A stretch of 64,000 nt of DNA from an uncultured virus (IMG/VR IMGVR_UViG_3300025154_000083) (Duplodnaviria > Heunggongvirae > Uroviricota > Caudoviricetes), in the IMG/VR virus record IMGVR_UViG_3300025154_000083, positions 1 through 64,000 of that record; one strand, written 5' to 3'. Below the pieces are notes generated by a model. The model was given only the letters and a program-made list of their open reading frames with translations. It searched no databases and was not told the DNA's origin. Positions within the stretch are counted from its first letter, which is position 1. Every line of letters starts with the position of its first letter. The translations under genes and the position numbers were made by a program. Below, piece after piece: positions 30,701-51,919 of this stretch.

Positions 30701-32470
30701 CCCGCCATTGTTCCGGGGAATCAGATCAAGAAGATAGTCGAGGCCGAGTATGGTCCGCTCCTGGAATCCATGGGTATCGATACCAGCTTGCTCGATTTCA
30801 AGTCTCTTCAGAGCCTGTACCGAATGTTCCAGATGACCAAGCCCCAGGGTCCCGATGTGATTCACGTTTTGCGCGATGGGAAGCCAGTCTATTACCACAT
30901 TCAGGATTCGCTTGTATTGCGGTCGCTCTCGGCGGTGAACGAGCGCCCATGGGGAGGTCCAGCCATGAAGGCCATGCGGACAGCCAAGCGACTCCTTACT
31001 CGGGGCGTCACCGCTGACCCTGGCTTCATGATCGCCAACCTTACTCGAGATACCTTGAGTGCATGGGTGGTTTCCCCCGACTTCAAGGCCGGGGTGGATT
31101 CCGTGAAGGGGGCGATAAAGACTTTTCGTGAAGATGAGGATTATGTGGCGATGCAGGCGTCTGGAGCTGCCTTCTCCGGAGGGTATGCTTTTGGGCATGA
31201 TTTGGAGGCAGCCAAGCGAGAAGTTGAGAAGCTCAACAAGAAATACAAGGTTGACGGGTCAACGGTGCTTAACAGCGTAAAGAAAATGTGGGCGTTCTGG
31301 GAGAAGTTTGGAAGCCGATTCGAGAATGCGACCAGAACACAGATTTATGCCAATATCCGAGCCCGTGGCGGTGCTCACGTCGAAGCGGCCTATGAAGCCA
31401 AGCGCATCATGGATTACTCGAAGCGCGGTGACTGGATGACCATCAAATTCCTCTGCGAGACGGTTCCCTTCTTCGGGGCCAGGCTCCAGGGAGCGCAGCG
31501 CCTTTACCATGGATACCGCGAGAACCCCAGGGGGTTTGCCACGAAGGGGATGATCCTCATGGGGGCTACCCTTGCCTTGTATGCCATGAATGCGGATGAT
31601 GACAGGTATAAGGAGCTTGAGGAATGGGATCGGGACAACTACTATCACTTCTTTGTCCTTGATGAGCATTTCCGTCTCCCCAAACCCTTCGAGGTGGGCG
31701 CCATCTTCTCCACCATCCCGGAGAGGCTGGCCGAGTGGTGGCTTGGGGAAGGGACTTCGAAAGAGTTTGCCAGGCGCATGCTGTTCACGCTGAATCAAAC
31801 TTTCTCGTGGCAGCCTCCGCAGCTCATTGGGCCAATGATTGAGCAGTATGCCAACAAGAGCTTTTTCACTGGACGTCCAATTGAGGGACAGTCCCTGCAA
31901 GCCTTGCAACCAGGAGCGCGCCGCGACCCATGGACCGGGGAAACCGTGTCCGTGATCGGGGAAGCCACCAACGTTTCCCCTAAGAGGATGGAGGCCTTCA
32001 TGCGCGGCTACTTCGGGACGCTCGGGACATATGCACTTATGGCGTCCGATGTCGCCGTGCGATGGATGTATGATTATCCGGACCCTCCAGCTAGCCGCCT
32101 GGATGACCTTCCTGTCATTCGCCGGTTCGTTCAGGAAGACCCGGCCCGCCACACCAAGTATGTCACTTCCATGTACGAGATGATCCGCGAGGTTGACCAG
32201 CTTTATGCCACGGTCAGACGCTATGAGAAAACCATGGAGCCAGGAAAAGCTGGAGAGCTTATCGAGCGGGAACGACGTAAATTGACATACAAAGACACTT
32301 TTAATAAGGTGCAAAGACAATTCAGTATGATTGATCAGGAGATCAGAAACATTCATCTTCGTAGGGATCTCACGCCAGAAATGAAACGGAAAAGTATTGA
32401 TGAGCTTACAAGAAGCAAAAATGAATTAGCCAGAGATGTTTATGATAGCACCAAGGCTGCGTTCAAATGA
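18740..32470 (+). CDS. Giant polyvalent (DarB-like) virion protein, 4576 aa
   Basis: Approximate domains: lysozyme-like 19150-19520; inorganic-PPase-like 21400-21900; ParB/Srx (EGNHR) 22180-22450; N6-adenine MTase (IEPSAGIG, NPPF) 23500-24180; Strawberry-notch helicase (GDGTGVGKGR, DESH, GRTHR) 24580-27700; LPD23 plus zincin HEIQH 28440-29260; ART-like 29300-29670; LPD38-like 31400-32250. Confidence 0.9.
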   Translation: MAYDGRLIDEMAAELLGPPATAATQPATATTPIDTALPEAPAAPASPLPTAAAPTIQSDPMGTTEQPFIPSQASPVFQAPQASPTSPIPTTFKASQIDALAEQLFGPAPEPRTTRRTTSRGLAGGLSDGSIDVGPQGGVVRGYDISRYATDPRHEQSVARYANELSSLSSIEAIDTHIQSVAPGSPVTGSMVASSASRYNVDPFVVLALMRQDSSYGTRGKGARTFNPGNVGNDDAGNMKNFGDWQQGVDAVAGWLSRHKAGAGSEGQGSRGIEGQGLLGLQPFTANAPPASLETRRRALGLIGMQTPEDIAAQKRREAWESAVDDMATELLGPPGVGMADAGKGGSLFGDIESGHTAGGPDAAETYLRAGRVMGVDTSSMLSDLEAKRKRWTLEKPSKAAQEEGMGGYRKWAYEGARSFSHSVSTRLPATVTGALFGGAAGALAGYVTSGAALFGLAEYDRFMEDAEKLGIPREEAYDEAVVAAIAETAFEASSDLLEMKMLKLFGGNLTEPVKGLIRRYVGNVLKIAPVEIATEAPTAAVQAAARESAGMPTPTPGQAALESIPSTAATSLFFAGLGTAAQGRRGQGGTGGEGGAGSEDTGDTGQPATPPSGPKGFPELQRVERIGIEAPQERFGLPAPPEGYPGEPAPEGVPRLPSPTQNWRMMVPDLRGMNRDQMLEYADSRKISLKDRSNKLKIFNSIKAYYDQINPSQLVTGEAATRTPVRQGVQEERYSPEAILARPEVPTPGGPAQRTTPTPQTAARQPLAMPQQEPQQEPQEAMKGEAPDAQGIRSDEGQVYPGGNVQGQGAGEGGQDLEFPKSEEPGGEAARQGTAEEVGQGEPAGLEGQTTREGLEGEAPPLQGQQSEQENPVSIAQQSLKTPLDIAAHEAASSPLNDKPQPTTPQIKADNAELGHFSFQGIPISIESPIGSVRKDVNHDPPKWQRVIKEAHYGRIKGVRGRDKDLLDVFVRTDNLTGDKTLDAKLPVFIIDQINPETGKFDELKAVAGGKDEQQALGTYLANYPEGWQGLGAITEFTMPEFKAWLKGGDATKPVGKKVPKVIETEQGVVKQKEDVDLPFAAGLAEQLAERKRLDQERKDREQAGKEKAEKGSAESEKPKWKTRIDEGPPDWNAGRTDTTRSDRGMIDPREIVGLPGENDEHLLFKRDRTGGYGTAKWNAFVQDVKQNGVKEPIIIFKEKDGKVHISEGNHRVRAAVEAGLKDIPVEIRYFGNSQRDGLVVDTETGKLVKKPEAPAALPAAPPPVTPKQTRTGPTAETAARKPLKEKAEPVAVAEKEVEEEPAAKEEPPLSSRPTTSSPVQPASSTPPTLTVSDLDTKSIIVKGDYTANKDRIAPVLKQHSGLYNGKHKGWVFPKKNEAAVRAALGIGGEKAGKDENVAEKSEQTAQPGPQRIIVGKNRDGDTIYSDDKGARYILEGGMRVQSFVLRPGYIDEQFMTVEEVEAEKPKSEDALEPEPSAPAPVTPAKSMADASREEEQAPAASSSQRLATWVKGKVARKESFTWQDLFSEADKAFSGTQAQGKYTPKDAYDAMEMGVNQAILASDLTMNPSNHTLQEAEQKVKELQNLIAKLPTQSKRTEEMDEFQQFSTPPPLAYLASWVANVNEQDTAIEPSAGIGGLAVFAKNAGAKVFVNELSPRRAAILEEMGFDRVFTENAEQLDNVLLDDVKPTVVVMNPPFSSTAGRIKGQRNTMNAARHIEQALNRLEDRGRLVAIVGRGMSVDAPSFRDWFAKIGKKYTVLADIGLSGKGYQKYGTTFDNRVIVIDKTGPGFDNIIKGSVEDVTEALPLLLGVRNARQRSKTSQGAESSQAQPGRAQGAQEGQTEPRPIVTPQSSVDVVGSGQQEPRPRQPGKRDGEVNEPVEPGRSDEGADGGKRGGRPGGASPQSEQVSGEPGTRVDRPGRGKDDSDREAGLRQQQRLEVSMAKAETQAEALSDSVYDAYKPSVKVAGTKAHPGNLVESAAMASVEAPPADYVPSIPKEVLAAGNLSDAQMETIVRAGQAHDTILEGGERQGFFIGDGTGVGKGREIAGVFLDNWNKGRKKGVWLSANSSLFKDARRDTEGIGDDAEKIFELGKVKATSSINASEGILFGTYDTLKMAAKGEQGKSGKRRIDQVVAWLGADFDGVIALDESHRAGNALQVQGQRGRKDPSKTALAVIELQDKLPNARVVYVSATGATEVMNLAYAKRLGLWGTGTPFPSVQAFVGQIQSGGIAAMELVSRDMKSMGKYLARSLSFHDVTYDKLEHVLTADQRDIYDKLAEGWQTVLNNLNEALQETGVVDEDGKTMDGRAKSAAMSAFWGSHQRFFNQIITSIQMPSVISRMNKELESGNACVIQLVNTNEASLGRAMANLEEDESLEDLDLTPRDQLMQYIERSFPIFQYEQYADEDGNVKSRPVLDANGNPVVNRTAEAMKERLLDQLGSIRVPDGPLEMILNEFGVKDVAEVTGRTQRVVTDESGKRVREKRSKAKTETDAQAFQEGEKNILVFSTAGGTGLSYHADLKAKNQKKRIHFLVQAGWRADVAVQGFGRTHRTNQKQAPHYLLVTTDLKGQKRFLSSIARRLDQLGALTKGQRQTGSQGFFSARDNLESEYATEALQKFLKNLLHDGEISGVSVDDFELQTGMKLRNDNGMQAAASPPMTQFLNRLLSLKYDTQNAVFDAFSKEMDAIVRREIENGTLDQGLENLKAAKIELVSEQTVHTDEKSGAETKYVELDVSNPTPVVSWEESGKVARKGYYQNLRSKNVWGRGSEKLRTKSSGDVVNEALLTAPSSRHQNVETIDLDDEKKWRRVEKEEAEKLWNDEYDKVPKMVTQRTHLISGAILPIWDRLTGKARIVRIQTDKGQRFLGRLINREDLSNTLRNLGASRTTAEYPTDRAIQLLGQGHRLELSNGWTVKESRVSGEMRIEIVGPNFNFDAELARAGVFTERVNWKTRYFIPTGTDAGQVLDKVTKSRPIVDDVAPFQGSGRVGAEEMEGGNAKEEREQEDRQAPTLQGVPKIKITNPEEKITHKAGYSEFFTTVVDADGGQAAKRVSGKAVKVKGLPDGREAFAYKIDGAYPWVVVDKQSGLALASGERTMENAVFTAELSIENVDKEEMDKVFAESELDLLPLYSWQAPGGQGTTNLYSGFPVDELIREIRAAKASIEELMPRIMPRLTDLGARIIARGHNTARTFKEELSRVLGDAFDAVRRYVLKIFAAAQRAYAKLPDAVKNEWGTFAGPKAQWWDKAEGKFSSLYDKREKFEIDDSGARIKKADEILPKEFKFKESDDGFHVYRKGKFEGLGVDKWRAAVDVSQRYGMTLDDILDHPELFKQYPELRKLGLTFLENPDGSKISGSYSPRSNKIEIRYPSKEVFAELGKDLNTNLKKDLLHEIQHAIQKLEDFARGGAPLIEKIKQQHPKEFETAIDRIKSEKPTWTSVRSVFGGDVGQTAAFSIYNRLAGEIEARDVASRSNLTPEQRRATPPYSSENIAPEDAIVRFGDGETQMAVAPKDLPESAKAKLAGTRVVGEDGEPLAVFHGGEAAIGEFKNKPDRRGGNGGFYFTPNARLASVFADQADVPGVHQVYLAIKNPKIVDFDTGASANLSPKDIASLKSQGFDGVIGKRDKTVVEYVVFNSDQIVSALSPEGEAAGKQPEQQGQQKQPEQLRSALTPPLQSEQGAIRLPQLPKFPNWSRAKAQRASTGDAEIDAALNKIGPAQKTTKEKLDAALDNWKLKAEQGIFDRFASLKALAKSAGIDTASNASRIQEDPYVAATMTTSLGDMLATMMNHGVPQWKEGAVWTPTRNKGLAQVFEPVADQLDMFLGWMVGKRAEKLMAEGRENYFTDAEIKALKRIITLPENKAKFLKVEADYIAFKKGVLDFAEASGVINAEERLLWDHDEYVPFYRIMEETQGLKGPRNKNSVASQYSGIKKLKGGESRLGDIFVNIMMNFSHLVDASVKNHATELSIQAAEKMGVAVKAKNQFKPAIVPGNQIKKIVEAEYGPLLESMGIDTSLLDFKSLQSLYRMFQMTKPQGPDVIHVLRDGKPVYYHIQDSLVLRSLSAVNERPWGGPAMKAMRTAKRLLTRGVTADPGFMIANLTRDTLSAWVVSPDFKAGVDSVKGAIKTFREDEDYVAMQASGAAFSGGYAFGHDLEAAKREVEKLNKKYKVDGSTVLNSVKKMWAFWEKFGSRFENATRTQIYANIRARGGAHVEAAYEAKRIMDYSKRGDWMTIKFLCETVPFFGARLQGAQRLYHGYRENPRGFATKGMILMGATLALYAMNADDDRYKELEEWDRDNYYHFFVLDEHFRLPKPFEVGAIFSTIPERLAEWWLGEGTSKEFARRMLFTLNQTFSWQPPQLIGPMIEQYANKSFFTGRPIEGQSLQALQPGARRDPWTGETVSVIGEATNVSPKRMEAFMRGYFGTLGTYALMASDVAVRWMYDYPDPPASRLDDLPVIRRFVQEDPARHTKYVTSMYEMIREVDQLYATVRRYEKTMEPGKAGELIERERRKLTYKDTFNKVQRQFSMIDQEIRNIHLRRDLTPEMKRKSIDELTRSKNELARDVYDSTKAAFK
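21105..21257 (+). CDS. Candidate nested +1-frame gene, 50 aa
   Basis: AAAGGAG RBS then MPKGYEAMRDRFIREGMSRDKAQEKAAKIWNSQNPRNPVGKRHVKEPPKK. Overlaps a low-complexity linker of the giant ORF. Confidence 0.5.
   Translation: MPKGYEAMRDRFIREGMSRDKAQEKAAKIWNSQNPRNPVGKRHVKEPPKK
24183..24560 (+). CDS. Candidate nested +1-frame gene, 125 aa
   Basis: GGAG RBS and a globular helical-looking sequence spanning the linker between MTase and helicase domains. Confidence 0.5.
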   Translation: MHANDPRQVKALNLHKLNRAALKALKKAKQSQDPSLLHSLQLMLWALDNKSLDLDSRVSETVRSMSRWSPEEVMKVLTGESEAGDRVELLRNPSKSPVSQALELIGQVEERMIATARPDYASNSD

Positions 32471-36349: not shown

Positions 36350-36442
36350 GTCTAACGTGGCGATAACCAGCGGGCGCCTTTACAGACTCACGCCTTACGA
36401 CTGCCAGGCGTGGCGCCCGTCTGGTTCATTGCCGGGTTAGAC
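36350..36442 (-). mobile_element. attC: Integron attC site (93 bp)
   Basis: Minus strand: GTCTAAC-5nt-AATGAACC...GGTTATC-6nt-GTTAGAC. The stop codon of the upstream ORF lies in R''. Confidence 0.9.
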
Positions 36443-36793
36443 GGGCTCAAATTCCACCTTTACGATTGGCCCGCATCTCAGATTTTTGAATGGAAGCCCG
36501 ACATCGGTCACTCGAACATCCACATGCTTCTTCGCTTCCGGGTCGAAAAACCTGACCATGCTTCCCAATTTGAGATGACCATCCCGAGCACAATGTGATC
36601 TCTTGCGGCCCGACAGAATGCTGTCGATAGCATCCGCGTCGAGAGGGCACCACACGTCCACGCCTCCGTTGGCTGCCCTTAGGAAACATCGGTCGGTTTC
36701 ATCCAACTCGGACAGCGGCTTTGCTTCTGGCCAAAATGGCCCTGGGTCATACCCCTTAACATTGGCATATTTCCCAGGCTTTTTACTGGCCAC
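36437..36793 (-). CDS. Cassette-borne hypothetical protein
   Basis: 118 aa, RBS GGAGG, TAA stop inside the attC R'' box. Confidence 0.75.
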   Translation of the reverse strand: MASKKPGKYANVKGYDPGPFWPEAKPLSELDETDRCFLRAANGGVDVWCPLDADAIDSILSGRKRSHCARDGHLKLGSMVRFFDPEAKKHVDVRVTDVGLPFKNLRCGPIVKVEFEPV

Positions 36794-36873
36794 TTCGATT
36801 ACCTCCCGGCCTCGCGGCCTAAAATCACGGCCCTACTTATCTCTACCTTATTCCTTCACTCCTCCCATCCCTC

Positions 36874-44533: not shown

Positions 44534-45019
44534 ATGATAACAAAATCAGCCATATTCTCGAAATGCCGCACGTATCGCTATTCCCTTTCCAGGGTTTGGA
44601 ATACCAGTCTTCCTGGCATGCTTTGGATCGGTCTTAATCCATCCACTGCAACCGAGACCGAGGACGACCCCACCATAAGGCGATGCATGCGGTTTGCCGC
44701 ATCCTGGGGATATGGCGGAATAGTCATGTGCAATCTGTTTGCGGTTCGAGCTACCGACCCCAAGGTCATGTTAGCTCATCCCATCCCTGTCGGCCCCGAA
44801 AATGATACATGGGTTGATGCTTATTCCAGAGAGGTTGCGTTGATTGTGGCTGCGTGGGGCACTCACGGAAGACATATGCATAGGGACATGGAAGTAATGG
44901 AATTATTGAGGCGTGAGAGCGAACAAGGAAAGATCAAATGTTTGAAGCTCACGAAAGACGGAGCACCATGGCACCCATTGTATGTTAAGGGAGACGCCAA
45001 GCTTTTGAAATATCCTTGA
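44534..45019 (+). CDS. DUF1643 family protein
   Basis: YRYSLSRVW, IGLNPSTA, DDPTIRRC, NLFAVRATDP, AAWG and HPLY motifs. Confidence 0.9.
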   Translation: MITKSAIFSKCRTYRYSLSRVWNTSLPGMLWIGLNPSTATETEDDPTIRRCMRFAASWGYGGIVMCNLFAVRATDPKVMLAHPIPVGPENDTWVDAYSREVALIVAAWGTHGRHMHRDMEVMELLRRESEQGKIKCLKLTKDGAPWHPLYVKGDAKLLKYP

Positions 45020-45040
45020 AGGAAAATGGGGGGCACGATC

Positions 45041-45178
45041 ATGCCGACAAAAAAGCATCGCCTCAAAATGGCGTGGACATGTAGCGACTTCAAGCATCAT
45101 GAGCATCGATGGAAGTGGACCGCTCGAGTGTGTGGATGGTTGCAGAGGATTAGGGTGGAGGTGAGGGGAGGAAAATAA
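45041..45178 (+). CDS. Small hypothetical protein, 45 aa
   Basis: MPTKKHRLKMAWTCSDFKHHEHRWKWTARVCGW...; fills the gap between neighbours exactly. Confidence 0.5.
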   Translation: MPTKKHRLKMAWTCSDFKHHEHRWKWTARVCGWLQRIRVEVRGGK

Positions 45179-45181
45179 ATC

Positions 45182-45910
45182 ATGAGGCCTTTAATTTACA
45201 CGCCATCCGGCCGGGCCGGTGAGTATGCCGACCATGGATATGCAGCTAATCTCTACAAGGGCTGCACTCATGGCTGTCTCTACTGCTACGCTCCATTTTA
45301 CGTGAGTCGGAAAGAGTTCCATTCGAAAGTGACCCCGGCCCCCGATGTCCTTGAACGATTGAAGCGGGACATGACGCGAGTCGGCCAGCTTTCCGAACCC
45401 GTGTTCTTGTGCTTCTCGTGCGACCCCTACTGTATCGGCACGGAGCACTGGAGGACAAGGGACGCAATCAAAATCATCACAGACCATGGAAACTCTGTCA
45501 ACATTCTGACCAAGGGAGGAATGGAAGCATGCCGCGATTTTGATCTTTTGTCGGCATCCAACTCTCAGATTGGAGCTACCCTCACGTTTTACAGTAGCGC
45601 CTTGTCGCTGAAATGGGAGCCCAATGCCGCGCTTCCGATGAATCGCATCGAAATGCTTTACCGAGCTCAATCCAGAAACATCCGGACGTGGGCCAGTATC
45701 GAGCCAGTCATTGTGCCGAGCGAGTCGCTGATGATTATGGAGGCCGCCATGCTCTACGTGGATACGTTCAAAATCGGAAAATGGAACCACGACAAACGGG
45801 CGGCCGCCATTGATTGGGGGAAGTTTCTTGAAGATGCCGTGGCCTTATGCGAGCAACACGGAAAAGCTTATGTCATCAAACAGGATCTGTTGAAATACAA
45901 GAAACCTTGA
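45182..45910 (+). CDS. Radical SAM protein (spore-photoproduct-lyase-like family)
   Basis: NLYKGCTHGCLYCYA (CxxxCxxC), SCDPY, ILTK, WEPNA and SIEPVI motifs. Confidence 0.9.
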   Translation: MRPLIYTPSGRAGEYADHGYAANLYKGCTHGCLYCYAPFYVSRKEFHSKVTPAPDVLERLKRDMTRVGQLSEPVFLCFSCDPYCIGTEHWRTRDAIKIITDHGNSVNILTKGGMEACRDFDLLSASNSQIGATLTFYSSALSLKWEPNAALPMNRIEMLYRAQSRNIRTWASIEPVIVPSESLMIMEAAMLYVDTFKIGKWNHDKRAAAIDWGKFLEDAVALCEQHGKAYVIKQDLLKYKKP

Positions 45911-45926
45911 AAGGAGAAAGGCATCC

Positions 45927-46355
45927 ATGACTGATTACGGCAACACCAAAGACAGCCCTTCCCCTTCAAGGCAATCCACGTCATCTCTTGCCTCACATTC
46001 CAACTCCAACCCTCTCCCCAACTCAAACCCTCCCCTCAATCTCTACTCCAACCCCCTCCCACGCCACGTAGACCTCTACCTCGACTTCGAAGAGGAAAAG
46101 AATCCGGACGGCACACTCATCGCTCCAGCTCGGGCGCGCTGCCGGCTTCGCTTGAAGGACTGGAGATTTGTGGATAGGCGGAAAAGGAACAGCAGTGGAA
46201 CGGGGAGTGTGTGCATTCTCGATGAGGGCGATGAGTTCGTTATCGACCGGGGTGTGCTCGGTGAAGGAAATGACGGGGCGATCAGGATGCATGCGCTGAT
46301 CCATGCCGAGGGGGAGAAGTACAAGAGAGAGTTGGTGGAGTGGGGAGTGGTTTGA
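45927..46355 (+). CDS. Hypothetical protein
   Basis: 142 aa with RBS AAAGGAG. Confidence 0.65.
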   Translation: MTDYGNTKDSPSPSRQSTSSLASHSNSNPLPNSNPPLNLYSNPLPRHVDLYLDFEEEKNPDGTLIAPARARCRLRLKDWRFVDRRKRNSSGTGSVCILDEGDEFVIDRGVLGEGNDGAIRMHALIHAEGEKYKRELVEWGVV

Positions 46356-46381
46356 CGGTTAAGAAGGAAGAATTTGATGCG

Positions 46382-46444
46382 GCCTTGAAGGGATGGGAGG
46401 GCTTGCGTTGGTGGCGTAAAAAAGCAAGCCCTTCCCTTCAAGGC
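46382..46444. terminator. Long inverted repeat between convergent operons
   Basis: GCCTTGAAGGGA(TGGG)AGGGCTTGC ... GCAAGCCCTTCCCTTCAAGGC. Confidence 0.6.
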
Positions 46445-46501
46445 ATTCCACGGATCATTGTAGCACTCTCAAGTTGCCAGCTTCGGCTCCACCACACAGG
46501 G

Positions 46502-46885
46502 TCACGACGCCACAATACCAATCTTCACGGCTGCACTCCGAACCAACGCCATATCTTCACCATAACCCCACAGATCCCCATCGCAATACCATTCCGGCCA
46601 CGGTCCAAAGCAATGGGCCGGTACCGGCTTTGCTTTTGTGATGAAGTCCCTAAAATGACAAACAAGAGCCTTGAGTGTGCCGCCATTTGTGAATCCTCTC
46701 CATCGGCTGAATGGGCAATGCGTGAAAATGCGCCGTTGTGAGTACGAATCCACAAACCAGACTCGCCCTCTAGCGTCCACCTCCATCTTGGACACTCGGT
46801 TTTCATGATAAAAAAACCGCCTGCCGTTGGAAGCGATTGCCTCCAATGCCTGATTGACCATATCCACCCGTTCATTTTTCGTCAT
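46502..46885 (-). CDS. Phage hypothetical protein, last gene of the cassette array
   Basis: MTKNERVDMVNQ...GRVWFVDSYS...WRGFTNGGTL...WGYG. RBS AGGAG just after R' GTTAGGC. Confidence 0.75.
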   Translation of the reverse strand: MTKNERVDMVNQALEAIASNGRRFFYHENRVSKMEVDARGRVWFVDSYSQRRIFTHCPFSRWRGFTNGGTLKALVCHFRDFITKAKPVPAHCFGPWPEWYCDGDLWGYGEDMALVRSAAVKIGIVAS

Positions 46886-46908
46886 TCTTCCAGCTCCTGT
46901 CCCAAGTG

Positions 46909-46998
46909 GCCTAACATTGGGGCTCAGGCGCGGCGGCCAAGGACTCTGAACCAACGTCTCGGGCTTCCTCCGCCGTCGCCTGCAGCCCTGGGTTATGC
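46909..46998 (-). mobile_element. attC: Integron attC site (90 bp)
   Basis: GCATAAC-CCAGG-GCTGCAGG...CCTGAGC-CCCAAT-GTTAGGC. Confidence 0.85.
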
Positions 46999-47120
46999 CA
47001 TAAATACACCCCCTCACCACCGCCACGCATGGGCCTAATAGCCCCGTGTCTCCCCGAGTGCCCTGGCTCCAACTCACAGGCCACGTGCGGGAACGTCTCG
47101 TTGACAGCTCCACACTTCAT
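46911..47120 (-). CDS. Cassette gene, 69 aa, translated through its attC
   Basis: RBS GGAGG. MKCGAVNETFPHVACELEPGHSGRH...; stop TAG lies in R'. Confidence 0.6.
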   Translation of the reverse strand: MKCGAVNETFPHVACELEPGHSGRHGAIRPMRGGGEGVYLWHNPGLQATAEEARDVGSESLAAAPEPQC

Positions 47121-47137
47121 CACCTCCCCCTTTCGCC

Positions 47138-47230
47138 GCATAACATTGGGGCTGAGCCGAGCGGGCCGTAGTACCACGGACTTCCGTAGCACCACGCGTG
47201 GCCCGCTTCGGCTCCAGCCCTGGGTTAGGC
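47138..47230 (-). mobile_element. attC: Integron attC site (93 bp)
   Basis: GCCTAAC-CCAGG-GCTGGAGC...GCTCAGC-CCCAAT-GTTATGC. Confidence 0.85.
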
Positions 47231-47233
47231 CAT

Positions 47234-47410
47234 TTACTCCGTGATATTAATCCCATCCGAAAACTCGAATTGCGACGGATATATGCCGTATTCTTTCCTG
47301 GCCGCCTCGTTCAAAGCTTTCATTGCCTCCGTATGCTCGCATCCAGTCTCATCTACTTCGAATTCCGCCTCGACCAAGAGATGGGCATAGCCCCACGCTT
47401 TCATTTTCAT
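47234..47410 (-). CDS. Cassette gene, 58 aa acidic protein (absent from ORF track)
   Basis: RBS GAGGAG. MKMKAWGYAHLLVEAEFEVDETGCEHTEAMKALNEAARKEYGIYPSQFEFSDGINITE. Confidence 0.65.
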   Translation of the reverse strand: MKMKAWGYAHLLVEAEFEVDETGCEHTEAMKALNEAARKEYGIYPSQFEFSDGINITE

Positions 47411-47431
47411 TCCGTCTCCTCGGGCCTCGCG

Positions 47432-47524
47432 GCCTAACGTGGCGATAACCCGCGCCGGCCTTAACGGGTTTCCGTAGCACGACTCACGCGCGTGGCCGGC
47501 GTCGGGTTCATTGCTGGGTTAGAC
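47432..47524 (-). mobile_element. attC: Integron attC site (93 bp)
   Basis: GTCTAAC-CCAGC-AATGAACC...GGTTATC-GCCAC-GTTAGGC. Confidence 0.9.
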
Positions 47525-47667
47525 CCCTTTGGCACCCAAGCGTTGGGTGCGGTTGTTCCGCACTTGCGGCACCTCAATGTGGTGCGCGTCACGATAACCT
47601 TTCCGCCGCAGGCGCAGCACGAGATACCTCTGTCGCCCGCCGGGAAACTCACTGTTACCATCACCAC
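47461..47667 (-). CDS. Cassette gene, small zinc-ribbon protein
   Basis: CCACGG...CRKCG with RBS GAGGAGG. The ORF runs into its attC. Confidence 0.6.
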   Translation of the reverse strand: MVMVTVSFPAGDRGISCCACGGKVIVTRTTLRCRKCGTTAPNAWVPKGSNPAMNPTPATRVSRATETR

Positions 47668-47676
47668 CTCCTCGCC

Positions 47677-47784
47677 GTCTAACGCTGCGCATCAGCGGCA
47701 CCGATCACGCGGGCCGAGGACTCGAAGAGACGCAACTGAATTGCCCCCGCGTGGTCGGTGTCCGGCTGCATGCGCTTGTTAGAT
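47677..47784 (-). mobile_element. attC: Integron attC site (108 bp)
   Basis: ATCTAAC-AAGCG-CATGCAGC...GCTGATG-CGCAGC-GTTAGAC. Confidence 0.9.
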
Positions 47785-48530
47785 GATTTGAATCCACGGT
47801 ACCATGCGTCCAGGTATGCTTTGGGTGTGGGCCAGCGAGTCTTGTCTTCGCCAGCCTTGTTCCAGAACCACCATGTGACCGCATGCTCAAAAACCCGATA
47901 ACATCCGGGCCACCTTTGCCTGTGCTGCTTCACCTTACCCATCCCGACCGAGACGATTAAAGGGCACACCATTCAGCCGATCCGGTCAAAGCCCTGGTCA
48001 TACAGTTCGCAAAATGGCAGGCCAAGACCTTCGATGAACTCCCAGACGTGCCATTCGTGCCACTCGAAAATGGGAGAATACTGCCATTTGCCGCGAAACC
48101 TTGAAATCCTCCCACGCTCTTTCCTCCCTGGAGACTCTTCGGCCCGTATGCCAACCAGTTTGTGTTTCAAGGGGATAGCTTTCGTTGGGTCTTTCTTTAG
48201 TACGTCGCAACACCAGCGCTTATTAAAAACGGGAGGAAACTTAGCTCTGATGCCTTCCCACATAGACATGACGGGACGGTAAATACGAGTATCAGGGTAT
48301 GTCTTGAGCCCGAACTTGATCGCCTCAGGTGGATCAATGCCGGTGAAGCTGTGGACCGGAAAGCATTTAACTCCAGCCATTTTCACCAACTCCATGAGCA
48401 CAACTGAGTCTTTGCCGAAACTATTGCAAACCATATACCCCTCAGATGGTTCATGAGCCTGCATAAAACCCACGGACTCAGCGACCACGTTTTGCAATGG
48501 TACTACCGACATTTGCTGTGCTCTTGGCAT
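47679..48530 (-). CDS. PAPS/APS-reductase-family protein, 283 aa if the UGA at 47973-47975 is recoded (candidate selenoprotein)
   Basis: SFGKDS PP-loop, WCCDVLKK, GIRAEES, then RIG*MVCP where the family has R.GC..CP. The two track ORFs abut in frame. Confidence 0.8.
47933..47963 (-). promoter_or_regulatory. Candidate bacterial SECIS element
   Basis: CCUUUA-A-UCGUCUC-GGUC-GGGAUGG-G-UAAGG. The GGUC loop begins 24 nt after the UGA. Confidence 0.65.
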
Positions 48531-48548
48531 TGACTTTACTCTCGCGCG

Positions 48549-48641
48549 GCCTAACTTTGGCGATAACCAGCGGGCACCCTAGCACCGCCGACTGCATAAA
48601 ACCAAGGCGTGGTACCCGTCTGGTTCATTACTGGGTTAGGC
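48549..48641 (-). mobile_element. attC: Integron attC site (93 bp)
   Basis: GCCTAAC-CCAGT-AATGAACC-AGACGGG...CCCGCT-GGTTATC-GCCAAA-GTTAGGC with two extrahelical bases. Confidence 0.9.
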
Positions 48642-48884
48642 TTCCGCAAACGCGAAAACCTTAATGGCCTTTCCGTCAAAATCAACCGTGACCGGGTTGA
48701 GCCCAAAGAGCCCCCCGCCGGCGTAATTGCATGGCCCGCCCGTTTTATCGAAAATCTGCTTATCAGAATTCATCGCTCGTCCCACACAGGAGAAAGCCGC
48801 TTCCCGGTCTGATGCCCCGGCATCCTTCCAATCCTTAACGCTGGCAACGTAGCCACAGGAGGGGCACACAAACTTCCAGCCCAT
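48636..48884 (-). CDS. Cassette gene, VVA0879-like Cys protein, probably N-terminally truncated
   Basis: WKFVCPSCG...FSCVGR...CNYAGGGLFGL. Stop in R''. No clear RBS, and an in-frame stop lies shortly upstream. Confidence 0.55.
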   Translation of the reverse strand: MGWKFVCPSCGYVASVKDWKDAGASDREAAFSCVGRAMNSDKQIFDKTGGPCNYAGGGLFGLNPVTVDFDGKAIKVFAFAEA

Positions 48885-48930
48885 TGGATCTTTCCCGAAT
48901 CGCTGGGTTGTCTACTCACCGAGCCCAACA

Positions 48931-49692
48931 TCACACTTCAATATGACGCCACGTCATACCAACAGCTATGTGAGAAAGATTGGATTTTTTCATATTAAAC
49001 ATCTTTTGTATAATCTTTCTATCAATATTGGCGTTAAGCAGTTTCTTTATGAGCCAAACTTCACCATCTTTCCATTTGGACTTGAAGTGACGCTCTCCAT
49101 AATCATCTGTTTTGTATTTAACTGGCGAAACTTCATCATAAGATATGTCAATGTCTCCCCACAACTCATCTCTTCCTATTCTAGCCGTATGATGAGGAGT
49201 TACTTTGAACATCTTGCCTATTAGTATTGACGGTATTCCAGAAAGCCATAGCTTCTTAATAAGCCACACTTCACCATCTTTTAGTTTACTCCTTCCGCTT
49301 TTCTCTCCACGCAGACCATGCTTTAACTCAGTTTTATATGAATGGATTACATTTTCTTGATGAGTTACCCATTCAAGATTAAAATCAAAATTGTTATTCT
49401 TATTTCCATCTTTATGATTAGCATTTTTGCCACTGGGTCGCTTGCATACAAATGCTTCCAAAACCAAAACATGAATTCTGCAACATTTTACCTTGCCATT
49501 CTGACACAGGGCAACTTGCAAATAGCCCCACTGGTTTGGACATGCAGAAAGTATTATTGGTAATTTCCTTTTTCTCGATCTCACCCTTCCAAAATTCGAT
49601 ACATCATAATCCTGGCACCACCACACTGGAATCCAGGTCTCTTTATTGACCTCTGAGCCTTCTTGCAAGATTTGTAAATCTATTGCTTGCAT
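48931..49692 (-). CDS. NUMOD4/HNH homing endonuclease
   Basis: YDVSNFGRVRS, IHVLVLEAF, NHKDGNK.NN...NLEWVTHQEN and a duplicated KDGEVWLIKKL. AT-rich. Confidence 0.9.
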   Translation of the reverse strand: MQAIDLQILQEGSEVNKETWIPVWWCQDYDVSNFGRVRSRKRKLPIILSACPNQWGYLQVALCQNGKVKCCRIHVLVLEAFVCKRPSGKNANHKDGNKNNNFDFNLEWVTHQENVIHSYKTELKHGLRGEKSGRSKLKDGEVWLIKKLWLSGIPSILIGKMFKVTPHHTARIGRDELWGDIDISYDEVSPVKYKTDDYGERHFKSKWKDGEVWLIKKLLNANIDRKIIQKMFNMKKSNLSHIAVGMTWRHIEV

Positions 49693-51919
49693 CTGTCGTC
49701 CTTATGCAAAGGTTTATTGCCTTTTGTTGGCCTACCAAGACAACATACCTTTTAGCACGAGTGATGGCAGTATACAAGAGATTTCTCCGGAGTTGAATAT
49801 AATTTGTGGTGTGTACCGGGATCACAACAACGGGAAATTCACTCCCTTGTGATCGGTGAACAGTAAGCGCATAAGCCATCTGTAGTTGCTCAAAATCCTT
49901 GGAAGCATACTCGACTTCCCGATCATCGATCATGACCACAACGGCACTCGCATCCCCTCCAAGCACAATCCCCATGTCCCCGTTGAACACCATCTTCTTG
50001 TAATCGTTCCTCGTCTGGATGACCCTATCCCCTGTCAAAAAAGGCGTCCCGCCTATAGCCACCCCTTCGACGTTGATCACGGGCCTCAATCGCCTATTCA
50101 GTTCTATCGTCCCGGCCGGCCCCTTCTTCATGGGACACAACACCTGGATATCCTTCAGGTCAAACCCATAGTGCGCGGAGAATTTCACGCACACCTTCTC
50201 TATCATGGGGGCGATGCCGTGCTTGTCCTCCTCGGTCACAAAGAAGAAATCCGAGTCGCCATCATTTTTGAGCTCAACCTTCTCGCCGCGATTGATTCGC
50301 TGAGCGTTCCGGTTGATGTAACTCTTCGCGGCCTGGCGATGAAGGGTGGTGAGATGCACTGTGGGGATTATCCACGATTCGATGATGTCTCCCAACACCC
50401 TCCCGGCACTCACCGACGGCAACTGGGCCGGGTCCCCAACGAGGATAAGCTGCGTCTTCTCCGGGTTGACCGCGGATAACAGGCTCGCCATGAGTTGCAC
50501 ATCCACCATGGAGGTCTCATCGATCACGAGCACGTCCACGTCGAGGGGGTTGTCCTGGTTGTGGCGGAATCCCACCTCGGGATGAAAGGCGAGCAGGCGG
50601 TGAATGGTCATGGCCGCACGACCGCCGGTTGCCTCGGACATGCGTTTGGCCGCCTTTCCCGTGGGGGCGGCCAGGGCAATATTCAAATCTCGACCCATGG
50701 CTCGGATGATGAAGTTGATCAAGTGGGTTTTGCCAACTCCGGGCCCACCCGCTAGAACCATGATTTTTGACGTCATGGCGAGGTCCAGGCCTCGAAGCTG
50801 GTCTTGGTCGAGGGAGTTGATTTCATCCGAGGAGAGCTCGCTTATCATGGCTGCATGGGGGGTTGAGACGAACTTTAGGAGGGACTGTGCCACGTCGATT
50901 TCAGCGGTCCACATTTCTGCCGTGTAGATGTAGGTGACGGGGGCGGGAGTGGTTGCATCGACTTTGCCTGCATCACCCTCGAAGGGAAGGGCTTCTTCCT
51001 TCAAGGCATCGCTCTTTTTCTGCGCCTCCATTCCCATCATTTCCCTCCCCGGCGTAAAATCCACCAGCTTCCCCGCGGCGATCATCTCGCTTAGCACCTC
51101 AACAACCTTCTCCTTCCCGGCCTCGAGGATCTCCACGGCGCGCTTGACCAGTTCCTCGAAGGGGAGACAGGTGTGCCCTTCTCTACCGGATGCTTCCTGC
51201 AGAACATACCTGATTCCGGCCGTCAGACGACGCCTGCTTTCCTTTTTTATCCCGGTGGACACGGCAATGGCGTCGGCTTTCTTGAAGCCTATCCCCCACA
51301 CATCGTCGGCCAGAAGGTACACGTTGGCCTCGATCTGCTTCTTGGCTTTCTCCTTGGTGCCGTAAGTGTCCATGAGGCGGTTCAGAAGGGAGGGCGTTAT
51401 CCCGTGGGTGCTGAAGTACACGTCAATCGTGCGATCCGACATGATGGAGATGTATTTCTCGTGGATCTCCTGGGCTCGGGCCGGGGTGATGCCATTGACC
51501 TCGGAGAGCTTCCCGGGAGAGTGCTCAATCACTTCGAAGAGGGCTGGGCCGAAGGCCTCCACGAGACGACGCGCAAGAGTAGGTCCGACCCAGCGCAGGC
51601 GGTCGAGGTAGTGGATGATTCCCATGGTATCCCTGGGAAGCTCGCGGGTGGCGTTGGAGAATTTGAATTGCCGGCCGTACCCCGTCTCTTCGTACTTCCC
51701 TTCCAGGGTTACGCAATCCCCGACCTCGAAGTCCAGCGGAAGAACACCGGTAGCCTTTTCTGGAATGCCACTGATCCGGATAATTCTCCAACCTCCCGTG
51801 AAGGGGCGGCTCATGTCCTTTATGGTCCCGGATATGGTTTCTACGGCGTTGATGGTGGTGGGAGCGGAAGATTGAGATGCGTTGCAAGGTGATGGCGTCT
51901 TCCTGGCCAGCTTAGACAT
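49643..51919 (-). CDS. recD2: RecD2-like SF1B helicase
   Basis: HhH repeats, GGPGVGKT, APTGKAA, IDETSM, VGDPAQLPSV, TVHRSQGSEF and LYTAITRA. Confidence 0.95.
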   Translation of the reverse strand: MSKLARKTPSPCNASQSSAPTTINAVETISGTIKDMSRPFTGGWRIIRISGIPEKATGVLPLDFEVGDCVTLEGKYEETGYGRQFKFSNATRELPRDTMGIIHYLDRLRWVGPTLARRLVEAFGPALFEVIEHSPGKLSEVNGITPARAQEIHEKYISIMSDRTIDVYFSTHGITPSLLNRLMDTYGTKEKAKKQIEANVYLLADDVWGIGFKKADAIAVSTGIKKESRRRLTAGIRYVLQEASGREGHTCLPFEELVKRAVEILEAGKEKVVEVLSEMIAAGKLVDFTPGREMMGMEAQKKSDALKEEALPFEGDAGKVDATTPAPVTYIYTAEMWTAEIDVAQSLLKFVSTPHAAMISELSSDEINSLDQDQLRGLDLAMTSKIMVLAGGPGVGKTHLINFIIRAMGRDLNIALAAPTGKAAKRMSEATGGRAAMTIHRLLAFHPEVGFRHNQDNPLDVDVLVIDETSMVDVQLMASLLSAVNPEKTQLILVGDPAQLPSVSAGRVLGDIIESWIIPTVHLTTLHRQAAKSYINRNAQRINRGEKVELKNDGDSDFFFVTEEDKHGIAPMIEKVCVKFSAHYGFDLKDIQVLCPMKKGPAGTIELNRRLRPVINVEGVAIGGTPFLTGDRVIQTRNDYKKMVFNGDMGIVLGGDASAVVVMIDDREVEYASKDFEQLQMAYALTVHRSQGSEFPVVVIPVHTTNYIQLRRNLLYTAITRAKRYVVLVGQQKAINLCIRTTDASNRFTNLARRLRGQ

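Follow-up and report, generated by a model that had tools for sequence, protein, structure and literature searches.

An integrase-less array of integron-type attC cassettes in a virulent-looking groundwater phage

Integron cassettes are usually viewed as a bacterial gene bank, often one aimed at phages. What, then, are six single-gene cassettes doing in an uncultured tailed phage, distally in its minus-strand operon of replication genes, and were they caught there once or are they still exchanged? The window analysed here is a stretch of 64,000 nucleotides from the IMG/VR record of this phage. In our reading, to which we assign a probability of roughly three in four, the region is an integrase-less cassette array (CALIN) in a virulent-looking tailed phage, with the integron integrase (IntI) of a host acting in trans as the likely mechanism. 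The strongest competing account, which we consider unlikely, is that illegitimate recombination, on one or two occasions, brought part of a bacterial integron or CALIN into an ancestor of the phage and its relatives, and that it was later reshaped by deletion, mosaicism and homologous recombination between attC repeats, with no integrase acting today and the attC sites persisting as relics, maybe as RNA hairpins.

According to the available part of its description, IntegronFinder calls a CALIN where at least two attC sites occur with no IntI nearby (PMC9024848). The main array, on the minus strand, holds five complete attC sites within 1.8 kb, with no IntI nearby (Table 1). The first-pass annotation of this DNA had named these five sites, and all are present where it put them, its coordinates being the low-coordinate ends of the minus-strand R' cores; its further statement that one co-oriented ORF precedes each site agrees with the ORF list and the sequence, in which every site lies 3' of one ORF in the same orientation. 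The PAPS-reductase-like gene of cassette 2 is listed as two ORFs because of a single in-frame TGA. Some cassette ORFs are interwoven with their sites: attC2 lies within the 3' end of the cassette 2 ORF, whose last ~35 codons are attC2 sequence and whose TAG stop falls inside the R' core GTTAGAC. Two features absent from the earlier description are a truncated attC behind the last ORF, which lacks its 3' arm and R', and a sixth complete attC with its cassette at 36350-36793.

Table 1. Features of the two cassette loci, in window coordinates.
Feature	Position	Strand	Basis or remark
GTTGGGC, core-like heptamer; possible 5' boundary of the array	48923..48929	-	regex; directly 3' of HNH stop
Cassette 1 ORF, 82 aa, CxxC protein, VVA0879 family	48636..48884	-	NCBIfam NF041591
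attC1, R'' GCCTAAC ... R' GTTAGGC	48549..48641	-	R1 81.0 bits; R2 54.2 bits, E 1.3e-12
Cassette 2 ORF, PAPS-reductase-like	47679..48530	-	PF01507 at 78 bits; phrog_424
attC2, R'' ATCTAAC ... R' GTTAGAC, 108 nt	47677..47784	-	R1 57.6 bits; R2 36.6 bits, E 1.2e-7
Cassette 3 ORF, 68 aa, Cys-rich (CxxC...CxxC), tail enters attC3	47461..47667	-	ORF list
attC3, R'' GTCTAAC ... R' GTTAGGC	47432..47524	-	R1 90.9 bits; R2 59.9 bits
Cassette 4 ORF, 58 aa, acidic, without family	47234..47410	-	ORF list
attC4, R'' GCCTAAC ... R' GTTATGC	47138..47230	-	R1 86.5 bits; R2 60.6 bits
Cassette 5 ORF, 69 aa, runs through attC5, stop in attC5 R' core	46911..47120	-	ORF list
attC5, R'' GCATAAC ... R' GTTAGGC	46909..46998	-	R1 79.6 bits; R2 48.7 bits
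Cassette 6 ORF, 127 aa, terminal	46502..46885	-	phrog_23101 (E 4.8e-27), phrog_14313
Truncated attC behind cassette 6 ORF	about 46448..46508	-	alignment: 5' arm and loop homologous to attC4
Long inverted repeat and terminator-like hairpin with T-run, ends operon	46370..46447	-	faces convergent + strand genes
Locus 2 left junction, T|TTAGGC	36817..36823	-	behind conserved 251-aa gene (phrog_1029)
Locus 2 cassette ORF, 118 aa, orphan	36437..36793	-	in no family
attC6, R'' GTCTAAC ... R' GTTAGAC, then terminator hairpin	36350..36442	-	R1 78.3 bits; R2 62.6 bits, E 5.4e-15

The array is embedded in phage genes. On its 5' side the operon encodes a pentapeptide protein, an SbcC-like ATPase, an exonuclease, a RecD2-type helicase and an inserted HNH gene, and on its 3' side a terminator-like site lies at 46444-46428 of the minus strand. 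No sigma70-like promoter was found on the minus strand inside 46500-48930, the array head included, and neither a Pc promoter nor an attI (sought by inspection, as there is no general model for it) was found at the head, which is the end of the helicase or HNH gene. An Rfam scan of 46000-49500 gave only two sub-threshold, miRNA-like chance matches on the terminator hairpin, and among 50,697 phage records blastn found no match to the region. The reported lack of intI in the window holds and extends further, with no match to TIGR02249 or PF00589 in the whole 67-kb record (G000, 97% complete) or in two near-complete relatives (G006, 89 kb, 100%; G007, 85 kb, 98%). No IntI adjoins the array, which is therefore not a complete integron, and the absence of both attI and IntI is a point in favor of a one-off capture.

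The sites are nevertheless integron-type attC sites, each with its cassette. All follow the order R'' (RYYYAAC-like), 5-nt spacer, 3 bp, extra base, 6 bp, extra base, more stem, variable loop, 3' arm, 6-7-nt spacer and R' (GTTRRRY-like), and the R''-L''...L'-R' architecture with extrahelical bases that was described at first is seen in this layout as well as in the folds. Under a strict IUPAC regex, three of the five R'' cores and four of the five R' cores in the main array fit the consensus, as does attC6; GCATAAC (attC5 R'') and GTTATGC (attC4 R') each miss by one base and are complementary to one another across cassette 5. When the plus (bottom) strand is folded as DNA, it forms an R-box, an internal loop and a stem with single-base bulges 6 bp apart. 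The z-scores of the folds, for the five window sites and then for site L002a of the closest relative, L002, are -1.9, -7.0, -4.5, -4.45, -3.5 and -1.2, and 8, 0, 0, 0, 2 and 26 of 200 shuffles, respectively, fold as well or better. Five of the six folds show two bulges, and the bulged bases of the bottom strand are C and T; those of attC_aadA7 are G and T. The idea that a top-strand bulged G (bottom-strand C) marks non-canonical sites was rejected, because a bulged G also occurs in sites of bacterial integrons.

Covariation points the same way. Across seven sites, 89.9% of cells are paired, versus 23-45% with the partner slid, 13 of 24 pairs have changed on both sides, and none of 500 shuffles reaches any of the covariation measures. 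Such full pairing with compensatory changes, in five or six of the attC sites, is unexpected for unused relics and argues against a single past capture. A covariance model also speaks in favor of attC: R2, trained solely on bacterial attC matches, finds every one of the six complete sites of the window (E 5e-15 to 1e-7; 37-63 bits) as well as both L002 sites. It is not wholly independent, since those bacterial sites were collected by means of a pattern and a model that derive from phage. Its training set comprises 20 rows, including three duplicates and one reverse-strand match, and hence 16 distinct forward sites, eight of which were shown to adjoin an IntI. Over 86 kb, on both strands and at E <= 10, R2 finds no further matches. 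The best R2 match is attC6, which model R1 also scored although this site was outside the R1 training set.

Sites of this class are known from bona fide integrons. When the genomes of 185,579 species were scanned with a pattern, six loci emerged, in four of which R1 finds multiple co-oriented sites. A Competibacter MAG (L007) has five sites and a Rubrivivax MAG (L012) three on the strand that leads away from a neighboring IntI gene; against TIGR02249, whose cut-off is 265 bits, the two genes score 469 and 458. These sedentary chromosomal integrons have in common with the phage the attC class GCCTAAC-CCRGN-NNT[G]NAGCNG[A]CG ... GTTAGGC, and in both settings the sites are co-oriented and homogeneous within an array, the bacterial ones pointing away from intI. 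The phage sites are 90-108 nt long, as against 60-99 nt in the bacterial integrons; the phage lacks IntI, a recognisable attI and a Pc promoter, and its cassettes, unlike the bacterial ones, would depend on the phage operon for transcription. Among phages, Tetrasphaera phage TJE1 has an R2 site of 41.4 bits at the start of its genome, the region in which the available text of Qi et al. places a CALIN (PMC9892861), and pattern scans of IMG/VR found the class only in the window phage, L002 and a 12.7-kb contig (L028; a single site, 41 bits). In the same metagenomes, other contigs with greater depth also carry the attC subfamily, there between unrelated flanks; the phage-specific cassette pool that the first-pass annotation envisaged is thus not established. 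An account in which the sites are intergenic repeats of the phage's own, akin to the promoter-stem-loop repeats of T4-type phages, with roles in RNA processing, termination, stability or as recombination hot spots and with a chance likeness to attC, is close to refuted, for although it suits hairpins that stand between co-transcribed genes, ORFs that terminate within them, the missing integrase and the confinement of the class in IMG/VR to two phages and one other contig, the same cores, spacer asymmetry and bulge geometry recur in bacterial arrays beside bona fide IntI, a bacterial-only model scores the phage sites at tens of bits, compensation across the cassette, which a pure hairpin role does not predict, is seen for mismatches between the R'' and R' of one hairpin, and no Rfam family matches.

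If the sites are attC, have their cassettes moved? The clearest evidence comes from L002, whose helicase is 83% identical to that of the window phage and which is missing the HNH gene. At the main array, L002 has one different cassette in place of HNH and cassettes 1-5. The seventh cassette of the window phage, that of attC6, lies 10 kb from the main array behind another conserved gene, and at this second locus L002 has two different cassettes where the window phage has one, with the left junction A|TTAGAC. Cassette content, which was to be compared among relatives, therefore differs between the two phages at two loci, in a comparison that spans two phage lineages only. That the two phages differ in their cassettes at each of two distinct loci is difficult to square with a one-off capture. 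In contigs of two further runs, an L002-type join connects 46938 to 49875 with 477 other letters between. A low-depth contig with a joint of 47229 to 47430 (side of 31), which would place two attC sites back to back, was set aside as probably belonging to another organism. Among the assembled contigs compared with the array, which would miss rare joints, neither a circle nor an excision joint turned up. The helicase query found two IMG/VR loci and, in the metagenome collection, only a twin contig and a 28%-identical helicase, while the 251-aa flank gene of the second locus has two 34-35% relatives with zero attC by R2.

Other features of the same comparison favor a one-off capture. By eye, L002 has a near-identical cassette 6 ORF, and the attC behind it is truncated to the same remnant in both phages; the terminal attC at locus 2 of L002 is truncated likewise. 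Cassette 6, having lost the 3' half of its attC, is fixed and has been kept in L002, and such truncated ends are illegitimate rather than site-specific junctions. Similarity between the window phage and L002 resumes at 46938, which lies within the 3' arm of attC5, some 30 nt in, and not exactly at the crossover point, so that homologous recombination between related attC sites also fits. The neighborhood is, moreover, variable in any case: L002 lacks matching DUF1643, radical-SAM and 142-aa genes at the equivalent position, and HNH occurs only in the window lineage.

The junctions themselves carry a further, fainter signal. In cassettes 3, 4 and 5, R'' exactly complements the core that precedes it (TTAGAC, TTAGGC and the rare TTATGC, respectively), which had been taken as the signature of units that excise as circles. 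The exact complement of the cassette's own R'' by its 5' TTRRRY stands in three of the five cassettes of the main array and in four of eight over both phages, but it is statistically weak, as three or more perfect matches arise in 10 of the 120 ways of permuting the five 5' ends (p about 0.08), and in the eight evaluable cassettes mismatches total six across junctions and six within sites. As a sign of circle excision, cross-junction complementarity is suggestive only, and its weakness counts in favor of a one-off capture. Yet the rare cores TTATGC/GCATAA and TTAGAC/GTCTAA pair across cassettes and not within sites, and three of the four arrays have their left junction where a crossover in the core would fall (A|TTAGAC in two, T|TTAGGC in one), both of which speak against that account. 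At these three junctions the base before TT is A or T, where a G|TT or G|WT crossover would give G. The start of the main array had been set at GTTGGGC (48929). This heptamer does lie right after the HNH stop and differs by one base from the complement of the R'' that cassette 1 carries, but whether it is the true start is uncertain, as the HNH-less L002 begins its array at A|TTAGAC, ~40 nt past the helicase stop.

These observations suggest how host IntI might act. Upon infection of an integron-bearing host, IntI would be supplied in trans and could recombine the folded bottom-strand attC of free cassettes with an attC of the phage (attC x attC) or, alternatively, with short GWT-type secondary sites, and cassettes would be inserted and removed in this way. 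Such insertion and removal would account for the other cassettes at the same two places in L002. Expression would presumably follow by read-through from the upstream phage operon.

Neither cassette arrays in phages nor IntI action upon them is unprecedented. CALINs in virulent phages were published in 2023, and the available text of that report states that IntI1 recombines attC sites of virulent phages, which thus have access to gene cassettes (Qi et al., Front Microbiol; PMC9892861). As described there, those CALINs resemble the present array in having co-oriented single-gene attC cassettes, no IntI and an adjoining transcription terminator. Against that description, the groundwater phage, which is known from sequence, has more sites (a run of five complete sites and a truncated one, plus a second locus), a homogeneous ~93-nt attC subfamily, terminal cassettes fixed by attC truncation and a close relative with different cassettes at both loci. 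The same source suggests illegitimate recombination, or off-target homologous recombination, as the way into phage genomes, in line with a one-off capture. IntI also inserts cassettes at genomic 5'GWT3' sites, as the accessible part of another report sets out (Loot et al., bioRxiv 10.1101/2022.09.11.507474); this attG insertion shares with our array cassettes outside an integron platform, neighboring promoters and domestication by attC loss, but it was shown there in E. coli chromosomes, not phages, and where it leads one to expect a G before TT, three of the four left junctions have A or T.

What the cassettes encode bears on their origin as well. The cargo had been described as phage-like, which is true of part of it. 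The cassette 1 protein matches NF041591 at 78 bits (cut-off 37) and phrog_32023 (E 1.1e-5), and tblastn finds it in 22 phage records, with 37-41% identity among the 20 matches listed; cassette 6 is found in six phage records at 29-37% identity. Such phage-type genes are at odds with a captured bacterial fragment. Four of the seven cassette proteins, however, belong to no recognisable family, and the cassette 1 family (VVA0879) carries an NCBI name taken from a bacterial gene. This family occurs in 3 of 400 genomes of G001's class, one of them sub-threshold, and the two loci above the cut-off have zero attC by R2. No family was found in Pfam, PHROGs, NCBIfam or PADLOC for the proteins of cassette 3 (a 16-bit sub-threshold NCBIfam match only) and cassette 5. 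The cassette 4 protein has one database relative, of 60 aa and 71% identity on a 1,067-bp contig, and the 118-aa protein of locus 2 has no family and only itself among two candidates, both in a word-based search that is weak for short proteins. The only PADLOC match is of cassette 2, to a BrxP-like PAPS-reductase domain. Five other viral contigs with a PAPS-reductase-like gene have zero attC by R2, and the tail of L030 shows no hairpin site by eye.

The in-frame TGA of cassette 2, at 47973-47975, is aligned with an otherwise conserved Cys. At this column the window, L002 and L032 have TGA and four other viral contigs have TGC or TGT; all 11 full-length database homologues aligned have Cys there, and two database proteins end there. 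The tRNA search found none in the window, and hence no phage suppressor tRNA that would account for the TGA. In all three TGA forms a hairpin starts 14-21 nt 3' of the UGA, with z-scores of -0.6, -0.2 and +1.1, none of them beating shuffles, and without an Rfam match. Judged by its alignment, the PAPS-reductase-like protein may be a selenoprotein; a selenocysteine reading of the TGA would make it a rare case of a selenoprotein encoded by a phage, and would offer a hint as to the host.

Perhaps the two loci are standing landing pads for a dedicated, homogeneous pool of ~93-nt attC cassettes bearing phage-type accessory genes, the possible selenoprotein among them, that circulates among groundwater phages and other elements and is shuffled by host integrases during infection. 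We regard this extended reading as doubtful; were it true, integrons would be a gene-exchange system for phages too, and cassettes could arise from phage genes. Cassette arrays in phages have been known since 2023, and the groundwater phage array is a well-documented new example. To the 2023 report it adds a sister-phage snapshot at two conserved loci, terminal cassettes fixed by loss of half an attC, and cargo with phage homologues. A phage that carries and apparently exchanges cassettes indicates that the same machinery can serve the phage side, and it provides a concrete system for asking whether host IntI acts on the DNA of infecting phages.

The attC sites of the phage are real and structured. 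The five coordinates reported for them in the first-pass annotation mark the ends of the R' cores, and the sites share a common plan: R'' (7 nt) is followed by a spacer of 5 nt, 3 bp, an extra base, 6 bp, another extra base and further stem; a variable loop and the 3' arm come next, and a spacer of 6-7 nt leads to R' (7 nt). Single-stranded folding of the bottom (+) strands as DNA yields an R-box, an internal loop and a stem from which single bases bulge out, with energies below those of shuffles for most of the five sites of locus 1 (z -1.9 to -7.0; 8, 0, 0, 0 and 2 of 200 shuffles fold as well as attC1 to attC5, respectively). In an alignment of these five sites with two from L002/G007, the nearest relative (85 kb), 89.9% of cells are paired compared with 23-45% in slid controls, both sides have changed in 13 of 24 pairs, and 0 of 500 shuffles match any of five measures. 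The truncated attC behind the 127-aa ORF aligns with attC4 through its 5' arm and loop and then passes into terminator sequence. A covariance model of phage sites (R1, seven training sites) returned one more complete attC (attC6, 78.3 bits), absent from its training set, which follows a 118-aa orphan ORF and is flanked by a conserved 251-aa gene and a terminator. Both the truncated site and attC6 had been missed earlier.

Features of the two cassette loci (locus 1 read from 48930 to 46370 on the minus strand) and other features of the window
Feature	Position	Strand	Description
HNH/NUMOD4 homing-endonuclease gene	48931-49692	minus	At head of cassette array
GTTGGGC		minus	Directly after HNH stop; possible head of the array
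Cassette 1		minus	82-aa ORF, then attC1 (48549-48641)
Cassette 2	47679-48530	minus	PAPS-reductase-like ORF; 3' end encoded by attC2 (47677-47784)
In-frame TGA of cassette 2	47973-47975	minus	Single
Cassette 3		minus	68-aa ORF, then attC3 (47432-47524)
Leader of cassette 4	47411-47437	minus	
Cassette 4		minus	58-aa ORF, then attC4 (47138-47230)
Cassette 5		minus	69-aa ORF, reading through attC5 (46909-46998)
Cassette 6		minus	127-aa ORF, then half attC
Terminator hairpin		minus	After half attC, closing array
Accessory genes	44534-46355	plus	DUF1643, radical-SAM-like protein, 142-aa ORF
Leader of locus-2 cassette	36794-36822	minus	
attC6	36350-36442		Behind 118-aa ORF
Giant ORF	18740-32470	plus	4,576 aa

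A degenerate pattern derived from the phage sites, scanned over one genome per species (185,579 species), gave six loci, with about four chance matches expected by our own estimate; R1 finds several co-oriented sites in four of the six, and these bacterial loci are not chance matches. In two MAGs, the sites adjoin an IntI gene and lie on the strand directed away from it, the canonical arrangement (Competibacter, L007, 469 bits; Rubrivivax, L012, 458 bits; TIGR02249 cut-off 265), and they match the phage sites in cores, spacer, bulge geometry and the bulged G of the coding strand. A second covariance model (R2), built from bacterial matches only (20 rows: 16 distinct forward sites, eight of them shown to adjoin an IntI, three duplicates and one reverse match), recovers the six complete sites of the window, at 36.6-62.6 bits (E 1e-7 to 5e-15), and the two L002 sites, and matches nothing else in 86 kb searched on both strands. 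Because the bacterial sites were gathered with the phage-derived pattern, R2 does not count as fully independent. As a control, R2 placed a 41-bit site in Tetrasphaera phage TJE1, directly behind the orf2 methyltransferase gene and in the region just past the terminator to which Qi et al. (2023, PMC9892861) assign that phage's attC cluster without integrase (CALIN).

The array lies in a linear IMG/VR virus record of 67,213 bases (97% complete by CheckV), of which the window is the first 64,000. The window encodes a primase, an internal virion protein, a tail-fibre-like protein and, within the structural-gene block, a 4,576-aa ORF, presumably a giant virion or injected protein; a replication and repair block on the minus strand includes a pentapeptide-repeat protein, an SbcC-like ATPase, a PolB-type exonuclease and a RecD2-type helicase. 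No tRNA genes were found in the window. The reported absence of intI extends to the whole record, which has no match to TIGR02249 or to the tyrosine recombinase family PF00589, and no tyrosine recombinase gene was found in the 89-kb twin record (L001/G006) or in G007; the phage therefore looks virulent. The twin carries an identical array and is 22 kb longer (89,432 bp, called 100% complete); the positions of its two cassette loci, close to opposite ends, would fit a circularly permuted record.

Cassette content differs between the window and L002 at both loci, the comparison being one of two lineages, the only ones in the collections searched (the window with its twin, and L002). The L002 helicase is 83% identical to that of the window. 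At locus 1, L002 lacks the HNH gene, and A|TTAGAC lies about 40 nt past the helicase stop, followed by a 73-aa ORF extending through a complete attC, and then by a near-identical 127-aa ORF, the same truncated attC and the terminator. At locus 2, L002 has two cassettes behind A|TTAGAC, the first a 72-aa ORF whose attC is complete and the second a 69-aa ORF whose attC is truncated, in the place where the window has the single 118-aa cassette with its complete attC. Thus, the two phages share the flanks and the crippled terminal cassette and differ in the cassettes ahead of it. Contigs from two further runs have the L002-type arrangement, with 46938 joined to 49875 by 477 other letters.

The HNH gene, which overlaps the helicase 3' end by 50 nt and has about 40% GC compared with 51-59% in its surroundings, looks like a recent insertion because it is missing from L002. 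On the convergent side of the terminator, the DUF1643, radical-SAM-like and 142-aa genes are without counterpart at the corresponding place in L002 (L002:13000-13330), and the zone around the terminator as a whole is an accessory-gene hot spot, beyond the attC array alone. For about 20 nt behind the core, the leaders of cassette 4 and the locus-2 cassette are near-identical (TTAGGCCGCGAGGCC[C/G]G[A/G]GGAG, including a ribosome-binding site), and the first cassettes of both L002 loci have the leader TTAGAC[A/C]GCAAAGGAG in common; a common leader seems to be a feature of the cassettes in this pool.

The cargo had been described as phage-like, and phage homologues do exist for three of seven cassettes, although none is shown to be phage-restricted. 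Cassette 1 belongs to the VVA0879 CxxC family (NCBIfam NF041591, 78 bits), with homologues in 22 isolate-phage records, mainly Microbacterium phages (37-41% identity among the matches listed); of 400 genomes in the class of G001, three contain the family, one of these (G148) below the threshold, and no attC was found at the two loci over the cut-off. Cassette 6 matches phrog_23101, phrog_14313 and six phage records, and no family was found for cassettes 3, 4 and 5 or the 118-aa protein in Pfam, PHROGs, NCBIfam or PADLOC. Cassette 2 encodes a PAPS-reductase-domain protein (PF01507, phrog_424). Five other IMG/VR contigs carry homologues of it, and R2 finds an attC in none of these contigs; its nearest named homologues come from MAGs that bear the name Desulfovibrio, which may hint at the host. 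The PAPS-reductase-like gene of L002 is at another position, has no attC and is 51% identical, and the window cassette is therefore not simply that gene moved.

The in-frame TGA of cassette 2 falls on the first Cys of the conserved R[IL]G-C-x-x-CP motif. TGA occupies the same column in the L002 paralogue (L002:14691-14693) and in a third viral contig (L032:5667-5669), these three contigs being divergent; four other viral contigs have TGC or TGT, 11 of 11 aligned full-length database homologues have Cys, and two database proteins end there. This is the distribution classically seen at Cys/Sec positions. Downstream of the TGA, each of the three sequences has a hairpin, but none folds better than shuffles, so selenocysteine is a candidate reading only, and cassette 2 a candidate phage-borne selenoprotein (UxxC).

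A cassette pool specific to phages, as first proposed, is not established. Within IMG/VR, the attC class occurs only in the window's phage, L002 and one contig with a single site, and the ~93-nt phage subfamily forms an array in no species-representative genome (185,579 species). In the source metagenome runs, however, contigs at more than twice the phage depth (~29 vs 12.6) bear a site that resembles attC4 over 82 nt (window 47147-47228), with 8 mismatches and 3 gaps, and an exact 30-nt attC3 arm (window 47432-47461) with unrelated flanks, and a 479-nt contig from another study's run carries an attC5-like site (window 46908-46998) with 7 mismatches and other flanks. Other DNA in these communities, whether of host or of phage, therefore carries the subfamily as well. 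The single-site IMG/VR contig (L028, 12,694 bp), the pattern's only other match there, has a lone 55-nt attC-type site (3786-3840; R2 41.2 bits), and a low-depth contig from groundwater metagenome runs has two subfamily sites back to back.

Most likely, IntI supplied by an infected, integron-bearing host drives cassette entry and exchange, and would recombine the folded bottom strand of an attC with a resident attC or with a short secondary site. Precedent for both steps is in the literature: virulent-phage attC sites are recombined by IntI1 (Qi et al., 2023, PMC9892861), and IntI inserts cassettes at 5'GWT3' genome sites, where the authors suggest that they could be domesticated by attC loss (Loot et al., bioRxiv 10.1101/2022.09.11.507474). 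Three observations speak against a clean IntI history: three left junctions have A or T, not G, ahead of TT, the terminal attC sites are truncated, and similarity between the window and its relative breaks inside an attC arm. A single capture followed by ordinary recombination is a serious rival, if an improbable one. In cassettes 3, 4 and 5, R'' is the exact complement of the core ahead of the same cassette, R'' and R' within attC3, attC4 and attC5 differ by a one-base mismatch, and the two rare variants, TTATGC/GCATAA and TTAGAC/GTCTAA, find their complement across the cassette. This complementarity, earlier read as the signature of excised circles, fits the prediction of a G|TT crossover and is suggestive in a small sample: when the five 5' ends are permuted, 10 of 120 arrangements reach three or more perfect matches, and all eight evaluable cassettes of both phages together have four perfect matches across the junction versus two within the site, with six mismatches each. 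No sigma70-like promoter was found on the minus strand within the array, and a terminator-like hairpin closes it, so the cassettes would most likely be transcribed by read-through from the phage's own operon.

CALINs in virulent phages have already been published (Qi et al., 2023, PMC9892861), and the window array is a clear and unusually rich further example. Comparative evidence of turnover, and terminal cassettes that have become fixed, may be additions to what that study describes.
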